Assembly (NCBI GenBank): GCA_964554805.1
Contig: CAZKPX010000006.1
Span: forward strand, 11,356 to 75,355
DNA: 64,000 nt
Direction: 5' to 3'
Origin: an uncultured Candidatus Saccharibacteria bacterium
Lineage (GTDB): Bacteria; Patescibacteriota; CAZHWT01
Part shown: piece after piece, positions 42,737 through 62,459 of the stretch
Layout of the letters: each line of letters begins with the position of its first letter
Numbering within the stretch: position 1 is the first letter of the stretch
Notes under the pieces: generated by a model
Told to the model about the DNA's origin: nothing
Database searches by the model: none
Seen by the model: the letters and a program-made list of their open reading frames with translations, nothing else
Program-made: the position numbers and the translations under genes

Positions 42737-42811
42737 GGGCCGGTAGCTCAATGGTAGAGCAGTTCCCTCTTAAGGAATTGGTTGGGGGTTCGAATCCCTC
42801 CCGGCTCACCA
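42737..42811 (+). tRNA. tRNA-Lys (anticodon CTT)
   Basis: GGGCCGG acceptor, D-arm GCTCAATGGTAGAGC, anticodon stem GTTCC/GGAAT with loop CTCTTAA, T-loop GGTTCGAATCC, encoded CCA. Confidence 0.85.
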
Positions 42812-42938: not shown

Positions 42939-43346
42939 ATGCAAAAAACAACTACTTTCTTAATGTTTGTCGGTGATCAGTGCGGTAAAGCCGAAGAGGC
43001 AATTAATTATTATGTGTCGCTTTTTCCTGACTCAGAAATAAAGTATGTTGACAAATGGAAACAAGATGAGCCAGGCGGTGAAGAAGGTTTGATAAAACAG
43101 GCTTCATTCTCTATTGCTGGTCAAGAGTATATGGCTAGCGAAAATAGAATGGACCACAAGTTTTCATTTACTCCAGCAATTTCAATTTATGTTAATTGTG
43201 ACAGTGAAGACGAGTTGCACAAGCTATTTGAAAAACTATCTGAGGGCGGTCAAGTCATGATGCCTGTGGATGGCTACGGATTTAGTAAAAAATTCGGCTG
43301 GGCTGCAGACAAATACGGAGTATCCTGGCAACTTAATCTCGCATAA
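42939..43346 (+). CDS. VOC-family protein (PhnB-like / 3-demethylubiquinone-9 3-methyltransferase-domain fold)
   Basis: 135 aa. 'TTFLMFVGDQCGKAEEAINYYVSLFPDSEI...FTPAISIYVNCDSEDELHKLFEKLSEGGQV...KFGWAADKYGVSWQLN' matches the PhnB-like glyoxalase-fold family pattern. Confidence 0.8.
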   Translation: MQKTTTFLMFVGDQCGKAEEAINYYVSLFPDSEIKYVDKWKQDEPGGEEGLIKQASFSIAGQEYMASENRMDHKFSFTPAISIYVNCDSEDELHKLFEKLSEGGQVMMPVDGYGFSKKFGWAADKYGVSWQLNLA

Positions 43347-43536: not shown

Positions 43537-43590
43537 CTGGCTCACCAAAAGTGGCATCATGAAAGTGATGTCTTTTTTGTTATAGTGATA
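43537..43590 (+). repeat. family-C repeat copy (tRNA 3'-end-like 'GGCTCACCAAAA' + hairpin + T-run)
   Basis: ctggctcaccaaaagtggcatcatgaaagtgatgtcttttttgtt. Upstream 43440-43536 carries the associated 'gcagataggaaatactatt...agtattctctatcgtcac' palindrome. Confidence 0.7.
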
Positions 43591-45659: not shown

Positions 45660-45754
45660 AGCCTGACTTTTTCGTAATTTTTGGAGACCATCTACTCAGG
45701 AACACAAAAGATAAAACATGGCTTTTGTAAGATCATTTATCCAATAAAGCAAGT

Positions 45755-46260
45755 GTTCGAACTGTGCATCATCCGGCTCACCAAAACACCCCGATTGTCT
45801 TAGCGACGGTCGGGGTGTTTTTGTTAGTCTTGATGATTCTAACCGCGCACAGCGCCAGGTTCGTAGATAGGAAATACTGTTGCTTGAATAAAGCTGAGTA
45901 GTATTCCCTATCGTCACGCAGTTATCCCTCCCGGCTCACCAAGAATCCCTCATCATCTTAGCGATGGTGGGGGATTCTTTGTGATCTGGTCGGTATTTTG
46001 AATACTGCGTAGCATAGGGGGCGAAGCTAGGAAAGCACTATTTGAACAACGATTCAAATAGTGTGAACTAGCGTTACGAATCCGCCAGCTGGCGGAGGAG
46101 TTACCCTCCCCTACCCCGATTGTCTTAGCGATGGTGGGGGAGTTTTTGTTGTGTCGGTTGGATTCTAGCTGCGCGAAGCGCCTAGTTTGTAGATAATAAA
46201 TATTATTCTTAAAAAGCGTAATAATATCCCTTGTCGTCACGGAGTTATCCATCCTTGCAA
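45755..46260 (+). repeat. three consecutive family-C composite repeat copies
   Basis: 45755-45830, 45935-46000 and 46100-46160 each contain '(c)cggctcacca(a)aa...ttagcga(c/t)ggt(c/g)gggg...ttt(t)gtt'. The spacers contain a 'tagata(g/a)(g/t)aaatact...agtatt' palindrome and 'cgtcacg(c/g)agttatcc'. Confidence 0.8.
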
Positions 46261-46848: not shown

Positions 46849-46939
46849 TAGCAGATGATGACTTTCTGCTCAAGTGGCTTTTATGCAGCCGTTTAATCTT
46901 CAAGTTCGAAGACTAGCTTGCTTCGCATATCTTCCAACC

Positions 46940-47020
46940 ACTCCAGCAGGTGTTCGAACTGTGAGTCATCGGGCTCACCAAAACACCCTGATTGTCTTAG
47001 CGACGGTCGGGGTGTTTTTG
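46940..47020 (+). repeat. family-C repeat copy with full tRNA-3'-like module
   Basis: ccactccagcaggtgttcgaactgtgagtcatcgggctcaccaaaacaccctgattgtcttagcgacggtcggggtgtttttgtt. Confidence 0.8.
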
Positions 47021-47121
47021 TTATGTTGGTCTGATTCTCTCGTGGGAAGCGGTGAACCATAGATTTTTGGATTCAAAAAAGGCCCGGACAGCGCGGTATG
47101 CGCTGCTCGGGCGAGGTTGAC

Positions 47122-47664: not shown

Positions 47665-48065
47665 GACTATCTCCTACCGAAGTTCTAGCCGCGTCAGAAA
47701 CAAGCGCATTATATCATACTATGGGATTTATTTAAAGACATAGTAATGAGGGATTGAATTATGTTCATCAATGGTGGCAATGTATGTAAATGCTTAGACT
47801 TTGTTTGACTAAAAATAAAGTATTTATTTAGCAGTCAGGGAACATCCTGCTCACTTTCCACTATTAGCGCTCTACTCTGCCTGAGACCATTGTATCTCTA
47901 ATGGGTGGCAAGCAGTCTATGGAAATTCCCAAACAGCAGCATCTTTTGCAACAATTCTTTAGGTTGTTTGGGATGCTATGCGTAAACGGAGTCAAAAGCT
48001 TTGACTTACTATTAAGCCTCACGAGACTGGTAGAATATATTGCTTAAATAATATAGCCATTCCAC

Positions 48066-48250
48066 TAGGTGTTCGAACTGTGAGTTATGCGGCTCACCAA
48101 AATACCCCGATTGTCTTAGCGACGGTTGGGGTGTTTTGTTGGGCCGGTCAGAAGATCAAATATGTGCGGAGCACTAGGTTTGAAGATAAGAAATATTATT
48201 GCTTTAAAAAGCAAAATAATACTTCTTATCGTCATGAGGTGCAGCCGAAT
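48066..48250 (+). repeat. family-C composite repeat copy
   Basis: ggtgttcgaactgtgagttatgcggctcaccaaaataccccgattgtcttagcgacggttggggtgttttgtt plus a downstream palindrome. Confidence 0.8.
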
Positions 48251-49816: not shown

Positions 49817-50189
49817 TTGGTCAGTTTACATTAGGGGTTGTTATGGATCATGCTCTACGTGCTGGGTGAAAGATAGGTGCAGAGTTACGAAGCGAAGCTC
49901 CCCTCCCGACCACTTTTCGTGACTGAACCCTACTCTATATTTCACCCGTTGGTGCTATACTCTGTGTGGTCCGATTTTTGGCTGCATTGCTGTTTATGCC
50001 TACTATAATGCTCTTTTTTGCTGTCGTTCTACTTTCAATGGCACGATCCTTTTGATTAAACTACGAAATCCTAATACCGATGCTTTGATATGTTAGTGCA
50101 AAAGATATGAGCGAGAAGGAAAGAATTAAACTGTCTGAAGAAACAAAACTGTAATTTTCAAGATTGCATTTCATGCACTATATCCTTCA

Positions 50190-50545
50190 GTCACTCCAAG
50201 TGGTGTTCGAACCAAATTTCACTAGGCTCACCAAGAATCCCTCATCATCTTAGCGATGGTGGGGGATTCTTTGTAGGCTGGTCGGTATTTGAATTCTGCA
50301 AAGCATGGGGGCGCAGCTAGGAGAATACTATTGTGCCAACGAGCACAATAGTATGAACTAGCGTTACGAATCCGCCAGCTGGCGGAGGAGTTACCCTCCC
50401 CTACTTTGATTGTCTTAGCGACGGTTGGGGTGTTTTATTGTGTCGGCCGGATTCTCGCAGCGCGGAGCGCTAGGTTCGTAGATAGGAAGAAACTATTGCT
50501 ATAACGATTTTAATAATTGGTACTACCGTCATGGAGCGAAGCGTA
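50190..50545 (+). repeat. two family-C composite repeat copies
   Basis: 50190-50280 and 50395-50450, with an intervening 'gaatccgccagctggcggagg' palindrome shared with family A. Confidence 0.8.
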
Positions 50546-51454: not shown

Positions 51455-51570
51455 TCTCCCCTCCCCTTGACCGTTTCATCTCAGATAGTATGATTAGCAG
51501 TCTATGGAAAATGAGCACCATTGACCTGGCAAGCAGAGGTGTTCTGAGATGCACGCCCGGAAGGGGTGAA
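51455..51570 (+). ncRNA. family-D structured repeat element, candidate small RNA with its own -35/-10 (copy 1 of about 5)
   Basis: TTGACC-16-TATGAT precedes 'tagcagtctatggaaaatgagcaccattgacctggcaagcagaggtgttctgagatgcacgcccggaaggggtg' (GGAA-capped hairpin). Related copies at 54455-54580, 56600-56720, 62210-62330 and a degenerate copy at 57180-57300. Coding potential is poor. Confidence 0.4.
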
Positions 51571-51656
51571 AAGGGGATACTACGAGGGGAGGTGAGAGGC
51601 ATTGCAAATGATGTGGACCCGGTGGCTGAAACAGCCACCGGGTCCATGATCCCTCC

Positions 51657-53022: not shown

Positions 53023-54132
53023 ATGAGTATAGATAGAGACCAACCATACAACGAATTACCATTATTGCCTCCAAAAGATATACCCTACAATGATTCTAAA
53101 ATCTTGGAAGCTTCATTATTGGCATCTGATGCGATAGGGGCGCTACGAGCTGGTATGAGATCTGATCAACATAATGTAATAAGGGCAGTGAGCATGATGA
53201 GTCCTCTTTTTGTCCCAGAAGCAGTAACAAGCTCAGGAATAGAAAATATTGCAACAACAAATGAGTTGGTATTGCAAGCACGCTCAGAGCAGCGTAACGA
53301 TGTAAATCCAAATGAAAAAGAGGTTCTAAATTACGTAGACGCCTTAATTCATGGTATGGAAAAGATACATGAAAGAAAAATCCTTACAACAAATGATATT
53401 ATTGATATTCAATCAATTCTTGAACCTACCAAGAGAGGTTTAAGAAAGGTGCCAGGGACATCGCTTCAGAATCCTGTTACAAAAGAGGTTTACTACACTC
53501 CACCTACTGGTGAAAGATTAATAAGGGATTTATTACAAAACCTTGAAGTTTATTTTAATGAAGAGGCACCGATTCAGGAGATATATGCAAGAATGGCAAT
53601 TTTGCATTATCAATTTGAGGCCATTCATCCGTTTAATGATGGAAATGGAAGAACTGGACGAATGTTAATGCCATTGTACTTGATGCAGCAAGGCCGCTTA
53701 AGTCTTCCGGTTCTATTCATAAGTAAGTATATATTAGAAAATAGAGATGAGTATTATCAAAAGCTGAGGGCGGTAACGTATGAAAATGCATGGGCGGAGT
53801 GGATTCTATATATCATCACAGCCACAACAACTCAAGCGAAGTACACTTCTGATATTCTAGATCGGATAAGACATACGATTGAAGTTACAAGCAAAAGATT
53901 AAAGCAAGAGCTACCAAGCATATATAGTGCTGAACTAGTAAACTTTATTTTTGCAGAACCATATTTTGATGTTGCAAGATTTCAGCATAGCCTTGGCATA
54001 AGTTATGCTACAGCTAGAAAATATCTCGCACTTTTGGAGGAGTCTAAGTTATTGGTGAAGAAAAAGCAGGAGGGTAGAAATCGTAATTTGTACGCAAATC
54101 CGCAATACATACAAATCTTAAAACAAACATAG
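53023..54132 (+). CDS. Fic/Doc-family protein (class II, with inhibitory SxxxEN motif and C-terminal winged-helix)
   Basis: Fic motif 'HPFNDGNGRTGR'. N-terminal 'TSSGIENI' inhibitory-helix motif. C-terminal HTH-like segment. Confidence 0.85.
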   Translation: MSIDRDQPYNELPLLPPKDIPYNDSKILEASLLASDAIGALRAGMRSDQHNVIRAVSMMSPLFVPEAVTSSGIENIATTNELVLQARSEQRNDVNPNEKEVLNYVDALIHGMEKIHERKILTTNDIIDIQSILEPTKRGLRKVPGTSLQNPVTKEVYYTPPTGERLIRDLLQNLEVYFNEEAPIQEIYARMAILHYQFEAIHPFNDGNGRTGRMLMPLYLMQQGRLSLPVLFISKYILENRDEYYQKLRAVTYENAWAEWILYIITATTTQAKYTSDILDRIRHTIEVTSKRLKQELPSIYSAELVNFIFAEPYFDVARFQHSLGISYATARKYLALLEESKLLVKKKQEGRNRNLYANPQYIQILKQT

Positions 54133-54279
54133 TTTTGCGAATAAATAATTATGGTTCATATACAAGCTGGTAGTTAAGATATTGTAGATAAAGCACTCCC
54201 CTCCTCCATCACCTTAAGCAACTTATTCCAGTCATTCAGGCTCTGGAGTCATTGATTCCATTGCGCCGAAAGTCGGCTC

Positions 54280-54345
54280 ACCAAGAATCCCTCATCATCT
54301 TAGCGATGGTGGGGGATTCTTTGTAGGCTGGTCGGTATTTGAATT
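54280..54345 (+). repeat. family-C repeat copy
   Basis: cggctcaccaagaatccctcatcatcttagcgatggtgggggattctttgt, nearly identical to the 50228 copy. Confidence 0.8.
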
Positions 54346-54664
54346 CTGCAAAGCATGGGGGCGTAGCTAGGAGAATACTATTGTGCCAACGAGTACAATA
54401 GTATGAACTAGCGTTACGAAGCGAAGTTAAGTTACCCTCCCGGCTCACTTCTCATCTCAGCGCTCTCCCCTACATTAAGTCCATTTATCTCTGATAGCAG
54501 AGTTGACAGTCTATGGAAAATTAGCCACAGCGATCTGGCAAACAGAGTCGTTCTGAGATGCACGCCCGGAAGGGGGTGTTAGCGGGGTGTTAATCTGTAT
54601 CCTGCTTGTTGGTTGTTTTGCGTCAGCTTGACTAAGATTGCCGAAGTATGGCACACTGTAGGCA

Positions 54665-56234: not shown

Positions 56235-56649
56235 AGGATGATAATCCGACCCAGTAGGGGCGGATTTCTCTCTCACCCCTTCCGGGTGTGCATCCCGGAA
56301 CGCCTTCGGGCAAGCGTGTGTTTTTGGTGGGCCGGGAGGGGAATTCCACTTTGTTCCATAAAGCTAGTTCATACGATTGAGCTCTTTGGCTCAATCGTAT
56401 TCTCCCAGCTTCCAAACCTGGCGCTTCGCGCGGATTCGATGGCGACCAGACGCAACAAAAAGTCTCCAGCACAAAAGTCCTGAGGGTTCTTTATTGTGTT
56501 TGGTTGGATTCTCACCTCCACTAGCTGGCAGAGAAGTTACCCTCCCTTGCTCCGGTCAGGACAACGATACCCTCTCCCGGCTCTTACTTTCCATGCTGGC
56601 GCTCCCCTATACTTTTGACCGGTTCATCTTAGATAAGATTGTTAGCAGT

Positions 56650-57090
56650 CTATGGAAAATGAGCACCATTAACCTGGCAAGCAGAGGTGTTCTGAGATGC
56701 ACGCCCGGAAGGGGTGAAAATTGTTTCAACTATATCAACTGGTATGTATTCAGATTCTAAAATCGATCGACAAATTTCTGATGTCTGCTGTACTCTAACC
56801 TTATTGCTGCGAATAAGCACCACCCCACCAGAGTATTGATCGCGATTGGCTAGATAAAAATCCCGTACATCTAATCCTAATTGGGCTGCTTGCTCTTCTC
56901 CTTCGCGGGTTAGGGGTTGGTTTCTATCATTCTCTAGGTGAGGCTCATTTTCTGCGTGCCTGATGGCAATAATATGCTGCAGGGTGGGAGCAGGCCCTTT
57001 ATTATTGTAGAGTCTTTGATAGCTTGGTTGGTGCGCTTCTTCATTTTGGATTAGGTTATTTTCATGCGGACCAGGGTATTCATTGGACAT
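56650..57090 (-). CDS. histidine phosphatase (SixA/PGAM-like); C-terminus encoded by a family-D repeat
   Basis: 'IIAIRHAENE' RHG-type motif. The last about 27 codons run into repeat D3, suggesting insertional truncation. Confidence 0.5.
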   Translation of the reverse strand: MSNEYPGPHENNLIQNEEAHQPSYQRLYNNKGPAPTLQHIIAIRHAENEPHLENDRNQPLTREGEEQAAQLGLDVRDFYLANRDQYSGGVVLIRSNKVRVQQTSEICRSILESEYIPVDIVETIFTPSGRASQNTSACQVNGAHFP

Positions 57091-57554: not shown

Positions 57555-57640
57555 TAGTCATTCCAGCTGGTGTTCGAACTGTGAGTTATTCAGCTCACCA
57601 TAAAAACCTCAAGTCTTCCGACTTGGGGTTTTTATGTTAT
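57555..57640 (+). repeat. family-C repeat copy (divergent)
   Basis: cattccagctggtgttcgaactgtgagttattcagctcaccataaaaacctcaagtcttccgacttggggtttttatgtt. Confidence 0.75.
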
Positions 57641-57893: not shown

Positions 57894-60320
57894 ATGCTTG
57901 CCCGTAAGCCTAAAATAATGCTGATGCTTATTCGGAAGTCGCTTCTTAAAAAGCTAACTTTAATTGCACTATCTACTATTGTTTTGGCTAGCATAGCTCC
58001 TTTATCTACCACCCAGGCTGATTCGGATCCATCATTTCAATGGTCGGAGTCTTCCATGCCGCCCATCGGTCGATTGGCAGCGCAATGGAGAGGGCTCTCG
58101 GTTAGCAGTGATGGGCAGGTGATTATCGCTGGTGCGGCTTATGGCAGAGTCTATGTCTCTCGTGATCGAGGTGATACCTGGAATGAGGTTCGGCCTGCTG
58201 GAGACACAACCAAAGAATGGCAAGGTATTGCTACTAGCGGTGATGGGCAGACGATGATGGTAGGCGTAGCTCACGGCAGTGGTTTGGGTAGACTTTATCT
58301 TTCTAAGGATGCAGGCGCTAGTTGGATAGACCAGCCGTTGGCGGGAGATATAGACAGAAAGTGGCGGACAGCTTCTATAAGTTATGATGGGCAAACTATT
58401 TTTGCCGCTGATAGTGGCGGTAGGGCTTATTTATCTAGGAACGGCGGCGATGACTGGGTTGAGGTTCAGCCCAATGGAGATGCGAATAGAAGCTGGTACT
58501 CTTCGGGAATGAGTCGAGATGGGCAAATCATTGTAGCTGGGGTAGCTAGCGGCCGAGCATTTTATTCGAACGATAATGGAGTTTCGTGGATTGAGGTGCA
58601 GCCTCACGGAAATTCTAATCAAACATGGTATGCCGCCTCAGTGAGCGGCAATGGCCAATCGGTTTTGTTCGGTGGCAATACTGCGAGGTTGCACATTTCA
58701 ACGGATGATGCTCAAACGTGGGCACCAATCCCCTTTGATGTGGATACGGGTATGGCCTCCCTAGCTGTAGATATCGCTGATAACGGCACGATTCTAGCTG
58801 GTAGAGATGGGGGCATACCTTATATTTCTTATAACTTTGGACAATCATGGGCAATTGCTCCCGACCTTCCGTCGAGCTCTTGGCGAGCAGTTGGCATAAG
58901 CGATGACGGGCAAACGCTTGTAACTGGTGGTACAGCAGGATACCTTTATATATCCAAAGATGCTGGCATTAGCTGGCAATCGACTGGTCCTTTGGTACAT
59001 GATTCTGGCTTTATCTCAACTGCTGTTAATCATGATGGCCATGTCAAGATTGCTGGAACAGGTGGGCGCCTTTATCGCTCACTAAACAGAAGCAATAATT
59101 GGGCAGAGGTTAGGCCAGCTGGTGACAGCAATCAAACATGGTATACCGCCTCTATTATGACTGATGGTCAAACCATATTAGCTGGAAGTAACACGCGACT
59201 GTATCGCTCAATCGACGGCGGGGATAGTTGGTCTGAGATGCAACCAGCGGGTGATGTTAATAGAGTCTGGTTCACAACTTCTTTAAGTAGTGATGGAGAG
59301 ACTATATTAGCTGGTGTCAATAGTGCCAGTAATGGTCGCCTGTATCGTTCTGTTGATGGTGGAGTCACTTGGGGCGAAGTTAGGCCAGGAGGAGATACTA
59401 ACTATACCTGGCGGACCACTGCCATGAGTAGTGATGGACAGGTCATGCTGGCTTCAGTGACTGGTGGCCACCTTTACCGCTCTGTTGATAGTGGAGACAC
59501 TTGGTCTGAAATACAGCCAGAAAGCGATGCTGCTCAAACATGGAGGACCACCTCTATAAGTAGTGATGGGCAAGTAATGCTGGCTGGTCACACTGCTCGT
59601 TTATACAGATCTGTCAATGGTGGTAATGCATGGAGTGAGGTTCAACCTGCAGGTGATGCGGATGGTAATTGGCGAACATCTATGTCCTCCAGTGGTCAGA
59701 TTATGGTGGCAGCCTCTTATGGTGGTCGGATATACCGTTCAGTTGATGGAGGCGACACATGGAGTCAGGTGCAACCAGGCGGAGATATCAATTCTAACTG
59801 GCATCCTATTTCGGTGAGTGGTGATGGCCATACAGTCTTGGCTGGGGTAGATGGTGGTGGATTGTATCTAGGCGTCACAAGCCCTGCATCTCCTGTACTA
59901 ATGATTGTATCTGGCGCTCAATTTATTGCTGATTCAATGATTGCGCTGACTGGCACTGCTCCTGCTAATGCTACTGTTGAAGTTGAAGTCCATTCGACTC
60001 CTCAGTCTGGCACGGTTGTAGCCAATGGTAGCGGCCAATGGTCATGGATTCCTCCGCTAAAACTTGAACCAGGCTCTCATTCCTATAGGGCTAGGGTGAT
60101 TGATGGTGATGTTATTGGCGCTTGGAGTGTGTGGACGGAATTTCAAGTTTTAGCTGCTATAACCAACAATCCCTCTAATTCATCCAGTCAACAAATACCT
60201 AATACGGGATCTGATTCTTTGGTAATTCGCTATAGTGGCCTTGTATTACTGGGACTTGGTGTAGCTAGGTTTTATGTGATTTTAAGGCGCAAGCGGCTAG
60301 ATGCGCCTGAATTATATTAA
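57894..60320 (+). CDS. BNR/Asp-box beta-propeller surface protein with IPNTG sortase sorting signal
   Basis: At least 14 repeats of 'G(R)LY(R)SxDxGxTW(S)E(V)QP' (Sx[DN]xGxTW). Signal peptide. C-terminal 'IPNTG' + hydrophobic + 'RRKRL'. Confidence 0.75.
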   Translation: MLARKPKIMLMLIRKSLLKKLTLIALSTIVLASIAPLSTTQADSDPSFQWSESSMPPIGRLAAQWRGLSVSSDGQVIIAGAAYGRVYVSRDRGDTWNEVRPAGDTTKEWQGIATSGDGQTMMVGVAHGSGLGRLYLSKDAGASWIDQPLAGDIDRKWRTASISYDGQTIFAADSGGRAYLSRNGGDDWVEVQPNGDANRSWYSSGMSRDGQIIVAGVASGRAFYSNDNGVSWIEVQPHGNSNQTWYAASVSGNGQSVLFGGNTARLHISTDDAQTWAPIPFDVDTGMASLAVDIADNGTILAGRDGGIPYISYNFGQSWAIAPDLPSSSWRAVGISDDGQTLVTGGTAGYLYISKDAGISWQSTGPLVHDSGFISTAVNHDGHVKIAGTGGRLYRSLNRSNNWAEVRPAGDSNQTWYTASIMTDGQTILAGSNTRLYRSIDGGDSWSEMQPAGDVNRVWFTTSLSSDGETILAGVNSASNGRLYRSVDGGVTWGEVRPGGDTNYTWRTTAMSSDGQVMLASVTGGHLYRSVDSGDTWSEIQPESDAAQTWRTTSISSDGQVMLAGHTARLYRSVNGGNAWSEVQPAGDADGNWRTSMSSSGQIMVAASYGGRIYRSVDGGDTWSQVQPGGDINSNWHPISVSGDGHTVLAGVDGGGLYLGVTSPASPVLMIVSGAQFIADSMIALTGTAPANATVEVEVHSTPQSGTVVANGSGQWSWIPPLKLEPGSHSYRARVIDGDVIGAWSVWTEFQVLAAITNNPSNSSSQQIPNTGSDSLVIRYSGLVLLGLGVARFYVILRRKRLDAPELY

Positions 60321-60574
60321 AGGTTAAGCCTACCTGCTGACTATGGAGTATCAGACTTACCACTAAGCATTGAAGATACCGCACAAAGCGCAGTCAATAG
60401 AGCAAAGGAGGTACCCTAGTGACCAGCTGCTCTGGTCTGATGCGTTAAGCCGAGCAACGCAAAGCCATCACTGAATCTGGATCTATGGCTTGATCGGCTT
60501 TAAATATCTTTGAGGGACGATTTTCCAGACTATACTAAGTGTGAGGCTGTAGTTTTTTGTCGTAAATCTTCCAG

Positions 60575-60660
60575 CCACTCCAAAAGGTGTTCAAACTGTG
60601 AGTCATCCGGCTCACCAAAAGGGACATCGCGAAAGTGATGTCTTTTTTGTTGTTATAATA
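60575..60660 (+). repeat. family-C repeat copy
   Basis: ccagccactccaaaaggtgttcaaactgtgagtcatccggctcaccaaaagggacatcgcgaaagtgatgtcttttttgtt. Confidence 0.8.
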
Positions 60661-60762
60661 ATGAAAACTATGTCTGACCGAGTTCGATAATTTGACACTA
60701 AGAGGGATAATATCGAACTCTGCCAGCTATTCTACAGCTCATCTGTAATTTTTTGTAATAAA

Positions 60763-60816
60763 TACTGTACATTATGAGTACAGTATTATTGACATTTCTT
60801 TATAAATATGTAAAAT
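60763..60816 (+). promoter_or_regulatory. operator-like inverted repeat (TACTGTAC-N7-GTACAGTA) abutting a TTGACA-16-TAAAAT promoter
   Basis: IR at 60763-60785. -35 at 60789-60794. -10 at 60811-60816. The ATG lies at 60823, so the mRNA would be (near-)leaderless. Confidence 0.55.
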
Positions 60817-60822
60817 GAACTT

Positions 60823-61521
60823 ATGGCTAATATTACCTATGTAATAGAAAAATTAATAAAGCTTCGAGAGCAAAACAGCTATACTCAAGAAGAGATTGCG
60901 CAAACTCTCGGATTGAGCAGGCAGAGTTATATCCTCGTCGAAAAAGGTCAGCGAGATCTAAATACTCAAGAACTAGAGCTTCTTGCCGCCAAATACGGTA
61001 TTGATATCGCTGATCTCTTTGATGAAATTCCTAACCTAGAAAAGTTTAAGCAAATGTATTTTGTATGCTTGGAGTTCGCTGCTAATAGTCATGGGAATGT
61101 TACCAAAACTATGCTAGCGAAGCTCCTCTATCTTGCAGACTTTGCAAATTTTTATGAAGCACTGGAGCCTATGAGTGGGGTTAAATATCGTCGCATGGAA
61201 TATGGGCCAGTAGCAGATATTTTTTTCTCAATGACCGACGACTTGCTTGAATCGGGTAAGATTAAAGTGCAAGTGCTCGACCGAGGGGCACAAATGATAT
61301 CTCTTAACACCAGAGAGGCGAAGACTAATCTGCTTTCCAACGAAGAACTTGATCGCATAAAGACTATTTGTGAAGCATGGAAAGACAAGCCAACTCAAGA
61401 TATCATTAACTTCACTCACGAACAACTGCCCTGGAAAATGTGTCGTAATGGTGAGTATATTCCATACTCTCTTATCATACAGGAAGATCCAGAGCATGTT
61501 TACCAACCGCTTACCAGATAA
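60823..61521 (+). CDS. HTH-XRE + Panacea (DUF4065/SocA-like) domain protein; PanA-type antitoxin candidate
   Basis: N-terminal 'YTQEEIAQTLGLSRQSYILVEKGQRDLNTQELELLAAKYGIDIADLF' Cro/C1 HTH. C-terminal 'LAKLLYLADFANFY...EYGPVADIFF...EQLPW' Panacea pattern. Confidence 0.75.
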   Translation: MANITYVIEKLIKLREQNSYTQEEIAQTLGLSRQSYILVEKGQRDLNTQELELLAAKYGIDIADLFDEIPNLEKFKQMYFVCLEFAANSHGNVTKTMLAKLLYLADFANFYEALEPMSGVKYRRMEYGPVADIFFSMTDDLLESGKIKVQVLDRGAQMISLNTREAKTNLLSNEELDRIKTICEAWKDKPTQDIINFTHEQLPWKMCRNGEYIPYSLIIQEDPEHVYQPLTR

Positions 61522-61921
61522 TATCGATTACAGAGTAGTGTTTAGTGATTTTGCTCAAAGATACTTCATTAAACAATTTTCTAAGAATTATCCTGGTAAG
61601 CAGTGGACAATAACGCAAGATTCTATCTTTGAGCAGCTGAAGCGTGTTCATGCGATACAGAGCACTCAGCAGGTGGATGAACTAAAGAATTGTGCTGATT
61701 GCCTGCTCTTTAAATACGATTTTGCTGTTGCCAAGACTAATGTATCGGCAAAAGCCTCTGGGAACCGCTGTGTAATCTTCTTGGATAAGTTGACTCAACA
61801 ACAAACAATTCTGGTCCTGTATCATAAGTCGCATTTACCCAAGAATAAACACGAGAATCAGTATATTGATGCTGTCCTTAAGGACGAATTCCCTCAATTT
61901 TATGCTCGACTTCATGTTTAA
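61496..61921 (+). CDS. small toxin candidate (RelE/ParE-like features, unclassified) overlapping the Panacea gene end
   Basis: ATG at 61496 overlaps the upstream stop by 26 nt. 141 aa, basic. 'YRVVFSDFAQRYF...RCVIFLDKLTQQQTILVLYHKSH' is vaguely RelE/ParE-like. The six-frame ORF (61370-) would start earlier, but the internal Met fits the operon geometry. Confidence 0.45.
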   Translation: MFTNRLPDNIDYRVVFSDFAQRYFIKQFSKNYPGKQWTITQDSIFEQLKRVHAIQSTQQVDELKNCADCLLFKYDFAVAKTNVSAKASGNRCVIFLDKLTQQQTILVLYHKSHLPKNKHENQYIDAVLKDEFPQFYARLHV

Positions 61922-61994
61922 TGAGTGGGTATTGGTGGTGGATCAAGATCATCTTTGTTGATCTGTAGGCTCTCATATAAAATCTAGTCTCTGT

Positions 61995-62100
61995 CTTAAA
62001 CTCTCTAGCCACTCCAATAAAAGTTCGATATGAGCATCACTCAGGTCACCAAAACTCCCTCATCATCTTAGCAATAGTGGAGGAGGTTTTGATGTGTTGG
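61995..62100 (+). repeat. family-C repeat copy (degenerate) fused to family-D element at 62210-62330
   Basis: ccactccaataaaagttcgatatgagcatcactcaggtcaccaaaactccctcatcatcttagcaatagtggaggaggttttgatgtgttgg. Confidence 0.7.
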
Positions 62101-62459
62101 TCAGTATTTGAATCCTGTGAAGCAAGGGGGCGTAGCTAGGAAAGCCCTATTTAAACAACGATTCAAATAGTATTCCTTATCGCCACGAATCCGCCAGCTG
62201 ACGGAGAAGGCACCCTCCCCTCTCCTTGACCATTTCATCTTAGATAAGATTGTTAGCAGTCTATGGAAAATGAGCACCATTGATCTGGCAAGCAGAGGTG
62301 TTCTGAGATGCACACCCGGAAGGGGTGAGAAGATACAAGTGCGGGATAAACTTGGGTAGGAATGGTGGGTGGAGTGGTTGAGAGCGTGAGTGGAGGGCTT
62401 GGACAGGAGTGCTCTGGATGTGTAAACTGTATACTAACAGACAAGCACGCGCGCTTCTT

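Follow-up and report, generated by a model that had tools for sequence, protein, structure and literature searches.

A predicted HTH-Panacea toxin-antitoxin pair with a RelE/HigB2-like toxin candidate in an uncultured Candidatus Saccharibacteria bacterium

We asked whether two overlapping genes in the genome of an uncultured Candidatus Saccharibacteria bacterium form a toxin-antitoxin (TA) system, and what type of toxin such a system would carry. The genes, a candidate antitoxin gene (panA) and a candidate toxin gene (panT), lie within a stretch of 64,000 nucleotides of contig CAZKPX010000006.1 (assembly GCA_964554805.1), hereafter called the window, to which all coordinates refer. The families PanA and PanT were defined by Kurata et al. 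2022, who reported helix-turn-helix (HTH) domains in 343 PanAs (PMC8832971). By combining domain and profile searches, structure prediction and comparison of related loci, we arrived at the interpretation, to which we assign a probability of about 0.72, that the module is an autorepressed type II PanAT system whose toxin is a RelE/HigB2-like mRNase.

The panA and panT open reading frames (ORFs) share 26 nt, so the overlap described in the initial annotation is confirmed by the ORF coordinates. The longest possible version of the panT ORF opens at GTG 61370; since all 45 aligned PanT homologues begin with MF(T/S), with M1 and F2 invariant, the real start is ATG 61496. PanA is acidic (isoelectric point 5.0) and PanT is basic (isoelectric point 9.1), the latter in agreement with the basic 141-aa downstream protein described at the outset. 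The GC content of the module is 39.6%, compared with 47.4% for the window.

Pfam assigns two domains to PanA. Residues 12-65 match HTH_3 (E 1.6e-10), and residues 98-205 match SocA_Panacea (PF13274) with E 7.4e-16 and 59.5 bits, where the gathering score is 25.7. The latter match spans profile positions 1-113 of 113, and it bears out the fusion of an XRE-type HTH to a Panacea domain, for which the initial annotation had proposed a PF13274 search as a check. Overall, PanA consists of the XRE-type HTH (residues ∼2-66) followed by the Panacea/DUF4065 domain (∼72-205), and it ends in a tail of conserved sequence (198-232). In the AlphaFold model, which has a predicted local distance difference test (pLDDT) score of 76, the HTH and Panacea domains are confident and the tail falls below 50-60. 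Because the tail is conserved in sequence yet modelled at low confidence, we regard it as a candidate fold-on-binding neutralising element. We collected 547 homologues of PanA, one of which is named by NCBI 'type II toxin-antitoxin system antitoxin SocA domain-containing protein'. A fold search with the PanA model returned HTH proteins only and detected no solved Panacea structure.

The pair is conserved as a unit. All 24 genome loci that were long enough to be assessed carry a gene for a PanA homologue (37-72% identity) directly upstream of, and overlapping, the gene for a PanT homologue. Four distant representatives of the PanT family (profile E 1e-13 to 1e-23) all adjoin HTH-Panacea genes, three of them in the panA-panT order (two with 11-nt overlaps) and the fourth divergently, which brings the pair to 28 of 28 related loci, mostly from Saccharibacteria. 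When all flanking ORFs were clustered, panA and panT were the only genes common between loci. One related locus adjoins an MmeI-type restriction-modification gene and an Mrr nuclease; other contexts include insertion sequence elements, a relaxase, carbohydrate genes and housekeeping genes. The identities of PanA and PanT to the window proteins co-vary across loci (r = 0.90, n = 23). Judged by the FlaGs criteria that Kurata et al. 2022 applied (≤100 nt between the genes, conservation across species, no longer operon), the pair is a conserved two-gene locus. Recurrence, unshared neighbours and co-variation are the usual marks by which comparative analyses recognise a TA pair that is autonomous and mobile.

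A second arrangement was observed in the locus L006 (Saccharimonadales metagenome-assembled genome (MAG), JBBRTA010000010.1, 1772-2888), where another HTH-Panacea gene (260 aa) is located directly downstream of the panAT pair. This second PanA gene overlaps a 114-aa RelE-like gene by 11 nt, so that two PanAT modules stand in tandem. The 114-aa protein is only distantly alignable to the PanT family (hhalign E 0.002, probability 14%), which suggests two related yet distinct PanA-associated RelE-like lineages in Saccharimonadales.

By sequence, PanT belongs to a sizeable family without a curated model. The window protein has no family match in Pfam, NCBIfam, PADLOC or PHROGs, and curated RelE/ParE models (ParE_toxin, RelE, HigB-like, YoeB, YafQ and Gp49 of Pfam, and those of NCBIfam) match neither PanT nor any of 45 close and 10 distant homologues. 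The initial description of PanT as outside the textbook toxin families, made together with the advice to search toxin profile libraries, is therefore fair at this level. We identified 95 close homologues with 53-67% identity, and all those with a named source originate from Candidatus Saccharimonadales/Saccharibacteria. An exhaustive profile search expanded the family to 202 representatives at the 50% clustering level, mostly from uncultured Saccharibacteria and Parcubacteria; no Bacteroidetes or archaeal protein with a name was among the results of profile searching. No relatives of PanT were found on phage or plasmid records by tblastn or in a scan of viral contigs. Over 89 diverse members, the invariant or near-invariant positions are K30, K73, F76, S84, S88, R91, L106, Y109, K111, E120 and T121.

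The predicted structure of PanT places it in a known toxin fold. The AlphaFold model is confident (pLDDT 89.4, predicted template modelling score 0.84), with strands at residues 13-16, 60-65, 69-76, 90-97 and 102-110 and helices at 18-31, 36-49, 120-131 and 133-139. An N-terminal strand and two helices are thus followed by an antiparallel beta-sheet, which is the layout of the RelE/ParE fold. Foldseek searches with the model returned aRelE, HigB2, PfiT, RelE2, YafQ, HigB and YoeB within the first 33 places. The PanT profile also aligned with Vibrio cholerae HigB2 in hhalign, across 61 columns in the core of the sheet (78% probability, E 1.8e-5); the HigB2 sequence used was checked to be identical to PDB 5JA9. 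The faint RelE/ParE-like features noticed in the initial annotation are thereby substantiated, whereas its description of PanT as an unclassified and possibly new toxin was overstated, in view of both the HigB2 alignment and the RelE-fold partners of HTH-containing PanAs already listed in the literature (PMC8832971).

The same alignment pairs the near-invariant residues R91, Y109 and K111 of PanT with R64, Y82 and K84 of the HigB2 active site. Alanine at R64, Y82 or K84 reduces the activity of HigB2 350- to 3000-fold (PMC5416850), and for the full set of R51, R64, Y82 and K84 Hadzi et al. 2017 reported a 170- to 3000-fold decrease (PMC5416850). With three of the four catalytic residues retained, PanT appears nearest to the HigB2/RelE mRNase branch. 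Judging from the predicted fold and these residues, the best-supported assignment of PanT is a divergent RelE/HigB2-type ribosome-dependent mRNase.

Upstream of panA we identified a putative operator, a perfect inverted repeat with arms at 60761-60770 and 60778-60787. Its sequence is single-copy within the window, and each of 20 shuffled 64-kb windows contained 0-2 inverted repeats of this quality. The initial annotation had reported 8-bp arms overlapping the -35 box. The repeat is real and stronger than described, with 10-bp arms, but it abuts the box: its last base falls 1 nt short of the -35 hexamer, and the only version that overlaps the hexamer is a 17-nt, 82% extension. The equivalent position in related loci is occupied by the sequence cgcAACAy-N3-ATGT...GTATTA-TTGACA, which is conserved but unlike the dyad of the window; in most of these loci, as in the window, ∼15 bp separate the axis of the best dyad from the downstream -35 start. 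The recognition helix of PanA reads SRQSYILVEKGQ in the window versus SRQRWILVEKGE elsewhere, and close relatives of the window PanA carry SRQRW/YI(L/M)VEKG(E/D) in this helix. One other locus, L013, has the S...Q helix variant, and it carries TAC-N7-GTAC at the operator position, so that a variant recognition helix and a variant operator go together in two loci (the window and L013). This co-variation and the shared axis provide modest support for PanA as a potential repressor binding its own promoter.

The promoter of panA is of the sigma-70 type and agrees with the consensus at 11 of 12 positions, as determined by a consensus scan. Its -10 element, TAAAAT, is separated by 6 nt from the ATG at 60823, and no purine-rich Shine-Dalgarno (SD) sequence precedes panA. 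Transcription is expected to start at or beside the A of this ATG, which would produce a leaderless mRNA. We aligned 16 Saccharibacteria regions (the window and 15 related loci), anchored on the -35 box, and found the layout TTGAC(A/T), ∼17 nt, TAnnnT, 6-7 nt, ATG in ∼14 of them, including the window. Because this layout recurs, the leaderless reading has comparative support, and the claim of a leaderless mRNA made in the initial annotation stands as a matter of geometry.

GGAGG precedes the panA ATG in loci binned to Coriobacteriia, Actinomycetes and Oscillospiraceae. The respective panAT pairs (L017, L018, L019 and L024, in MAGs labelled Actinomycetes, Coriobacteriia and Oscillospiraceae from termite-gut assemblies) are ∼50% identical and share this leader. 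Such GGAGG-led pairs in bins outside the Candidate Phyla Radiation (CPR) could reflect a transfer to non-CPR genomes, possibly from epibiont to host, or mis-binning.

The panT gene is preceded by an SD-like AGGAAG inside panA, and the motif cAGGAAGA or a near variant is present upstream of panT in 21 of the 26 related loci. With this internal SD and the 26-nt overlap, translation of panT is probably coupled to that of panA.

The following scheme of the system can be proposed. A sigma-70-type promoter of its own would drive panA and give a leaderless mRNA, and panT would be translated from the internal SD of the same transcript. The XRE-type HTH of PanA, probably as a dimer, most likely binds the dyad with 10-bp arms and represses the operon. 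By analogy with the family, the Panacea domain together with the conserved C-terminal tail would bind and neutralise PanT. PanT, with its Arg-Tyr-Lys set, most likely acts inside the ribosomal A site, where it would cut mRNA under translation, as its fold and residues suggest, so that loss or inactivation of PanA would lead to PanT-driven growth arrest. The module as a whole would represent a chromosomal, autonomous, horizontally moving two-gene unit, mainly of Saccharibacteria and other CPR bacteria.

Several observations weigh against this scheme. The fourth catalytic residue of HigB2, R51, pairs with Ala77 of PanT and is thus unmatched; K73, which is near-invariant, on the same strand and four residues upstream of A77, could be a substitute. 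At the sequence level, the link of PanT to RelE/HigB2 is weak. Its profile gave no significant match to aRelE, E. coli RelE or YoeB (hhalign 0.3-2%), neither the single PanT sequence nor the profile has a match in PDB, and Pfam likewise has none. The family is further characterized by a 12-residue beta2-beta3 insertion (loop 77-89), by a two-helix C-terminal extension and by the near-invariant pair E120-T121. As for PanA, the conservation of its tail partly reflects dual coding, since the same nucleotides specify the SD and start codon of panT. Finally, most dyads of the related loci, taken singly, are no better than those of shuffled sequences, and the position of the window dyad, next to the -35 box but not covering it, makes repression plausible without requiring it.

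We considered four other explanations. The first proposes that panAT is mainly an anti-phage abortive-infection system, in which Panacea senses a phage cue and releases or activates the RelE-like effector, in contrast to a classical addiction or stress module. Ernits et al. 2023 showed that the Panacea domain either neutralises directly or serves as a platform or sensor where other domains neutralise, and proposed a sensory role for it in multidomain PanAs (PMC10440598). The HTH of PanA matches the control-protein and capH models of PADLOC, and the locus with the MmeI-type gene and the Mrr nuclease points in the same direction. However, the remaining loci occupy unrelated housekeeping or mobile-element contexts, PanT has no PADLOC match, and the searches of viral contigs, phage records and plasmids yielded no relatives. 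We consider a mainly anti-phage role rather improbable; it would be compatible with the interpretation of PanT as the mRNase of a PanAT system. An explanation of similarly low probability combines several features of the locus, with PanT as a CPR-centred offshoot of the RelE fold that has changed its target or chemistry, Panacea as the sensor of the trigger, and leaderless versus SD-dependent translation as the determinant of the antitoxin:toxin ratio. Such an offshoot may, for example, cleave rRNA or tRNA or act off the ribosome, and the trigger may be a phage or host-contact cue in the episymbiotic Saccharibacteria.

It is also unlikely that PanT is a ParE-like toxin, which would have the same fold and the same PanAT architecture but would poison DNA gyrase instead of cleaving mRNA. 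SOS regulation is established for several TA operons of other bacteria, and the dyad arms TACTGTA/TACAGTA (60763-60785) match those of the E. coli SOS-box (LexA) consensus, CTGT...ACAG, but a dyad serving a LexA-like or other regulator instead of PanA is very unlikely given that the spacing is CTGT-N11-ACAG rather than N8 (a centre of 9 nt rather than 6 nt), that the dyad is present nowhere else in the window, that orthologous loci differ at its position in step with the PanA recognition helix, and that PanA has an HTH of its own; the resemblance is probably a coincidence.

Among the described systems, the closest to the predicted mRNase-type PanAT module are the PanAT pairs with toxins of cluster T14. 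Kurata et al. 2022 listed MqsR-like, ParE and other RelE-fold partners of PanA (PMC8832971). HTH-containing PanAs are common, and complexes of PanA with its toxins have been described (PMC8832971, PMC10440598). Their Dataset S1 includes HTH-PanAs with T14 toxins, overlapping by 11 nt, in 'Candidatus Saccharimonas aalborgensis' and TM7 HOT_356 (PMC8832971). The similarity covers the antitoxin with an N-terminal HTH and a Panacea domain, the antitoxin-then-toxin order with a short overlap, the RelE-fold toxin and the occurrence in Saccharibacteria; the 11-nt overlap is also found in distant members of the present PanT family. In contrast, HHpred links the T14 representative to HigB-2 with 99.7% probability (PMC8832971), whereas the present family reaches 78% in hhalign, has no Pfam match and is longer (∼140 aa). 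The 114-aa toxin that stands in tandem in L006 is T14-like. This comparison is based on the published description of T14, and the family may itself belong to the cluster. In either case, both the HTH-PanA architecture and the RelE toxin fold are already known.

Other known systems are more distant. HigB2 of V. cholerae (PDB 5JA8, 5MJE, 8A0X), a ribosome-dependent mRNase, is 10-15% identical to PanT, lacks the additional beta2-beta3 insertion and second C-terminal helix of PanT, and differs from it at R51. Its antitoxin HigA2, in which the N-terminus is disordered and the HTH is C-terminal, is unrelated to PanA, and the gene order of higBA2 is reversed. Pyrococcus horikoshii aRelE (PDB 1WMI) and E. 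coli RelE have no significant sequence or profile similarity to PanT (hhalign 1-2%), and their antitoxin is RelB and not a Panacea protein. The type VI TA system SocAB of Caulobacter shares the Panacea/DUF4065 domain, which is carried by SocA. However, PanA scores far below the cut-off of the NCBIfam SocA_antitoxin model (E 3.3e-4, 20 bits against 190), SocA acts as the ClpXP adaptor for SocB, a blocker of the replication clamp, and the present module pairs an HTH-containing PanA with a partner of predicted RelE fold.

The analysis adds to the Panacea network a toxin family candidate of 202 representatives that has no Pfam, NCBIfam or PADLOC model, and places it in the RelE/HigB2 fold, with a putative Arg-Tyr-Lys active site that can be tested. 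It also provides a clean comparative example of a predicted leaderless antitoxin gene followed by an SD-led toxin gene. The GGAGG leader in Actinomycetota and Bacillota (Firmicutes) bins bears on the exchange between CPR epibionts and their hosts, or else on mis-binning. The general picture of PanAT systems is unchanged by the module.

The features of the module and its flanks are collected in Table 1.

Table 1. Coordinates of the panAT module and flanking features in the 64-kb window
Feature	Position	Strand	Description
panA, antitoxin candidate gene	60823-61521	+	232 aa
panT, basic toxin candidate gene	61496-61921	+	starts at ATG 61496; 141 aa
PanT, product of panT	61496-61921	+	RelE/HigB2-like predicted fold; beta2-beta3 insertion; two C-terminal helices; no Pfam model
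Putative operator dyad	60761-60787	.	AATACTGTAC-N7-GTACAGTATT, perfect 10-bp arms
Sigma-70-type promoter of panA	60789-60816	+	TTGACA 60789-60794, 16 nt, TAAAAT 60811-60816
SD-like AGGAAG for panT	61481-61486	+	within panA codons Q-E-D, 9 nt before ATG 61496
Intrinsic terminator upstream of the module	60616-60649	+	15-bp stem followed by a T-run, inside a dispersed-repeat copy
Upstream dispersed-repeat copy	60549-60672	+	local alignment to 61984-62119, ∼70% alike
Downstream dispersed-repeat copy or copies	61984-62332	+	mosaic intergenic repeat

The RNA fold of the region that contains the upstream terminator (60600-60665) has an energy of -25.9 kcal/mol (z -4.96), and none of 200 shuffled sequences is as stable. 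This terminator probably shields panAT from read-through out of the upstream gene, which encodes a putative BNR-repeat surface protein. A candidate terminator after panT, the hairpin at 62036-62105, was rejected, being no more stable than shuffled sequences (z 0.06).

The flanking repeats belong to a set of mosaic intergenic repeats downstream of tRNA-Lys(ctt) (42737-42811), where almost every gene from ∼43.5 to ∼62.3 kb is followed by a copy; the copies are 70-92% identical to one another. Blastn with the upstream copy detected 43539-43581, 45753-45786, 46923-46983, 48055-48102 and 57556-57603, and with 61984-62332 it detected 45936-46112, 50219-50402, 51456-51573, 54278-54575 and 56602-56720 (76-92% identity); in wider extents, the repeat stretches include 45753-46158, 46923-47031, 50189-50402 and 56271-56720. 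The conserved hairpins of the repeats are ATACTATTGTGC-caacga-GCACAATAGTAT (at 50325 and 54375) and CCGCCAGCTGGCGG, and by eye other copies contain hairpins and terminator-like stems. Short-read contigs that carry an identical module break at these repeats. No Rfam family matches the repeats, and no target-site duplication was found for the module. The ORFs at 40-43 kb beside tRNA-Lys lack a recombinase domain, in a scan that covered part of the window ORFs. The initial annotation placed the module in a repeat-delimited cargo slot: the flanking repeats exist, but copies follow nearly every gene and do not single out the module, and they show no insertion mechanism. An integron cassette was likewise rejected for lack of support, with no integrase domain beside tRNA-Lys, no Rfam family and no attC-type site recognised in the repeats, although no search aimed at such sites was made.

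The repeat-rich region also contains a gene (53023-54132, + strand) for a 369-aa Fic/DOC-family protein with Fic_N, Fic and SoFic-like_C domains, possibly another toxin or an AMPylase. A gene for a PF06983 protein (3-demethylubiquinone-9 3-methyltransferase/glyoxalase-like) occurs near the module in L033 (673-1095) and L038 (3654-4556), and in the window at 42939-43346, 18 kb away; this proximity is likely due to chance. The gene that precedes the upstream terminator (57894-60320, + strand) encodes an 808-aa protein with BNR/Asp-box (Sortilin-Vps10-like) beta-propeller repeats. By eye, a signal-like segment is visible at its N-terminus and an 'IPNTGS' motif ahead of a hydrophobic tail at its C-terminus, and it looks like a sortase-anchored surface protein.

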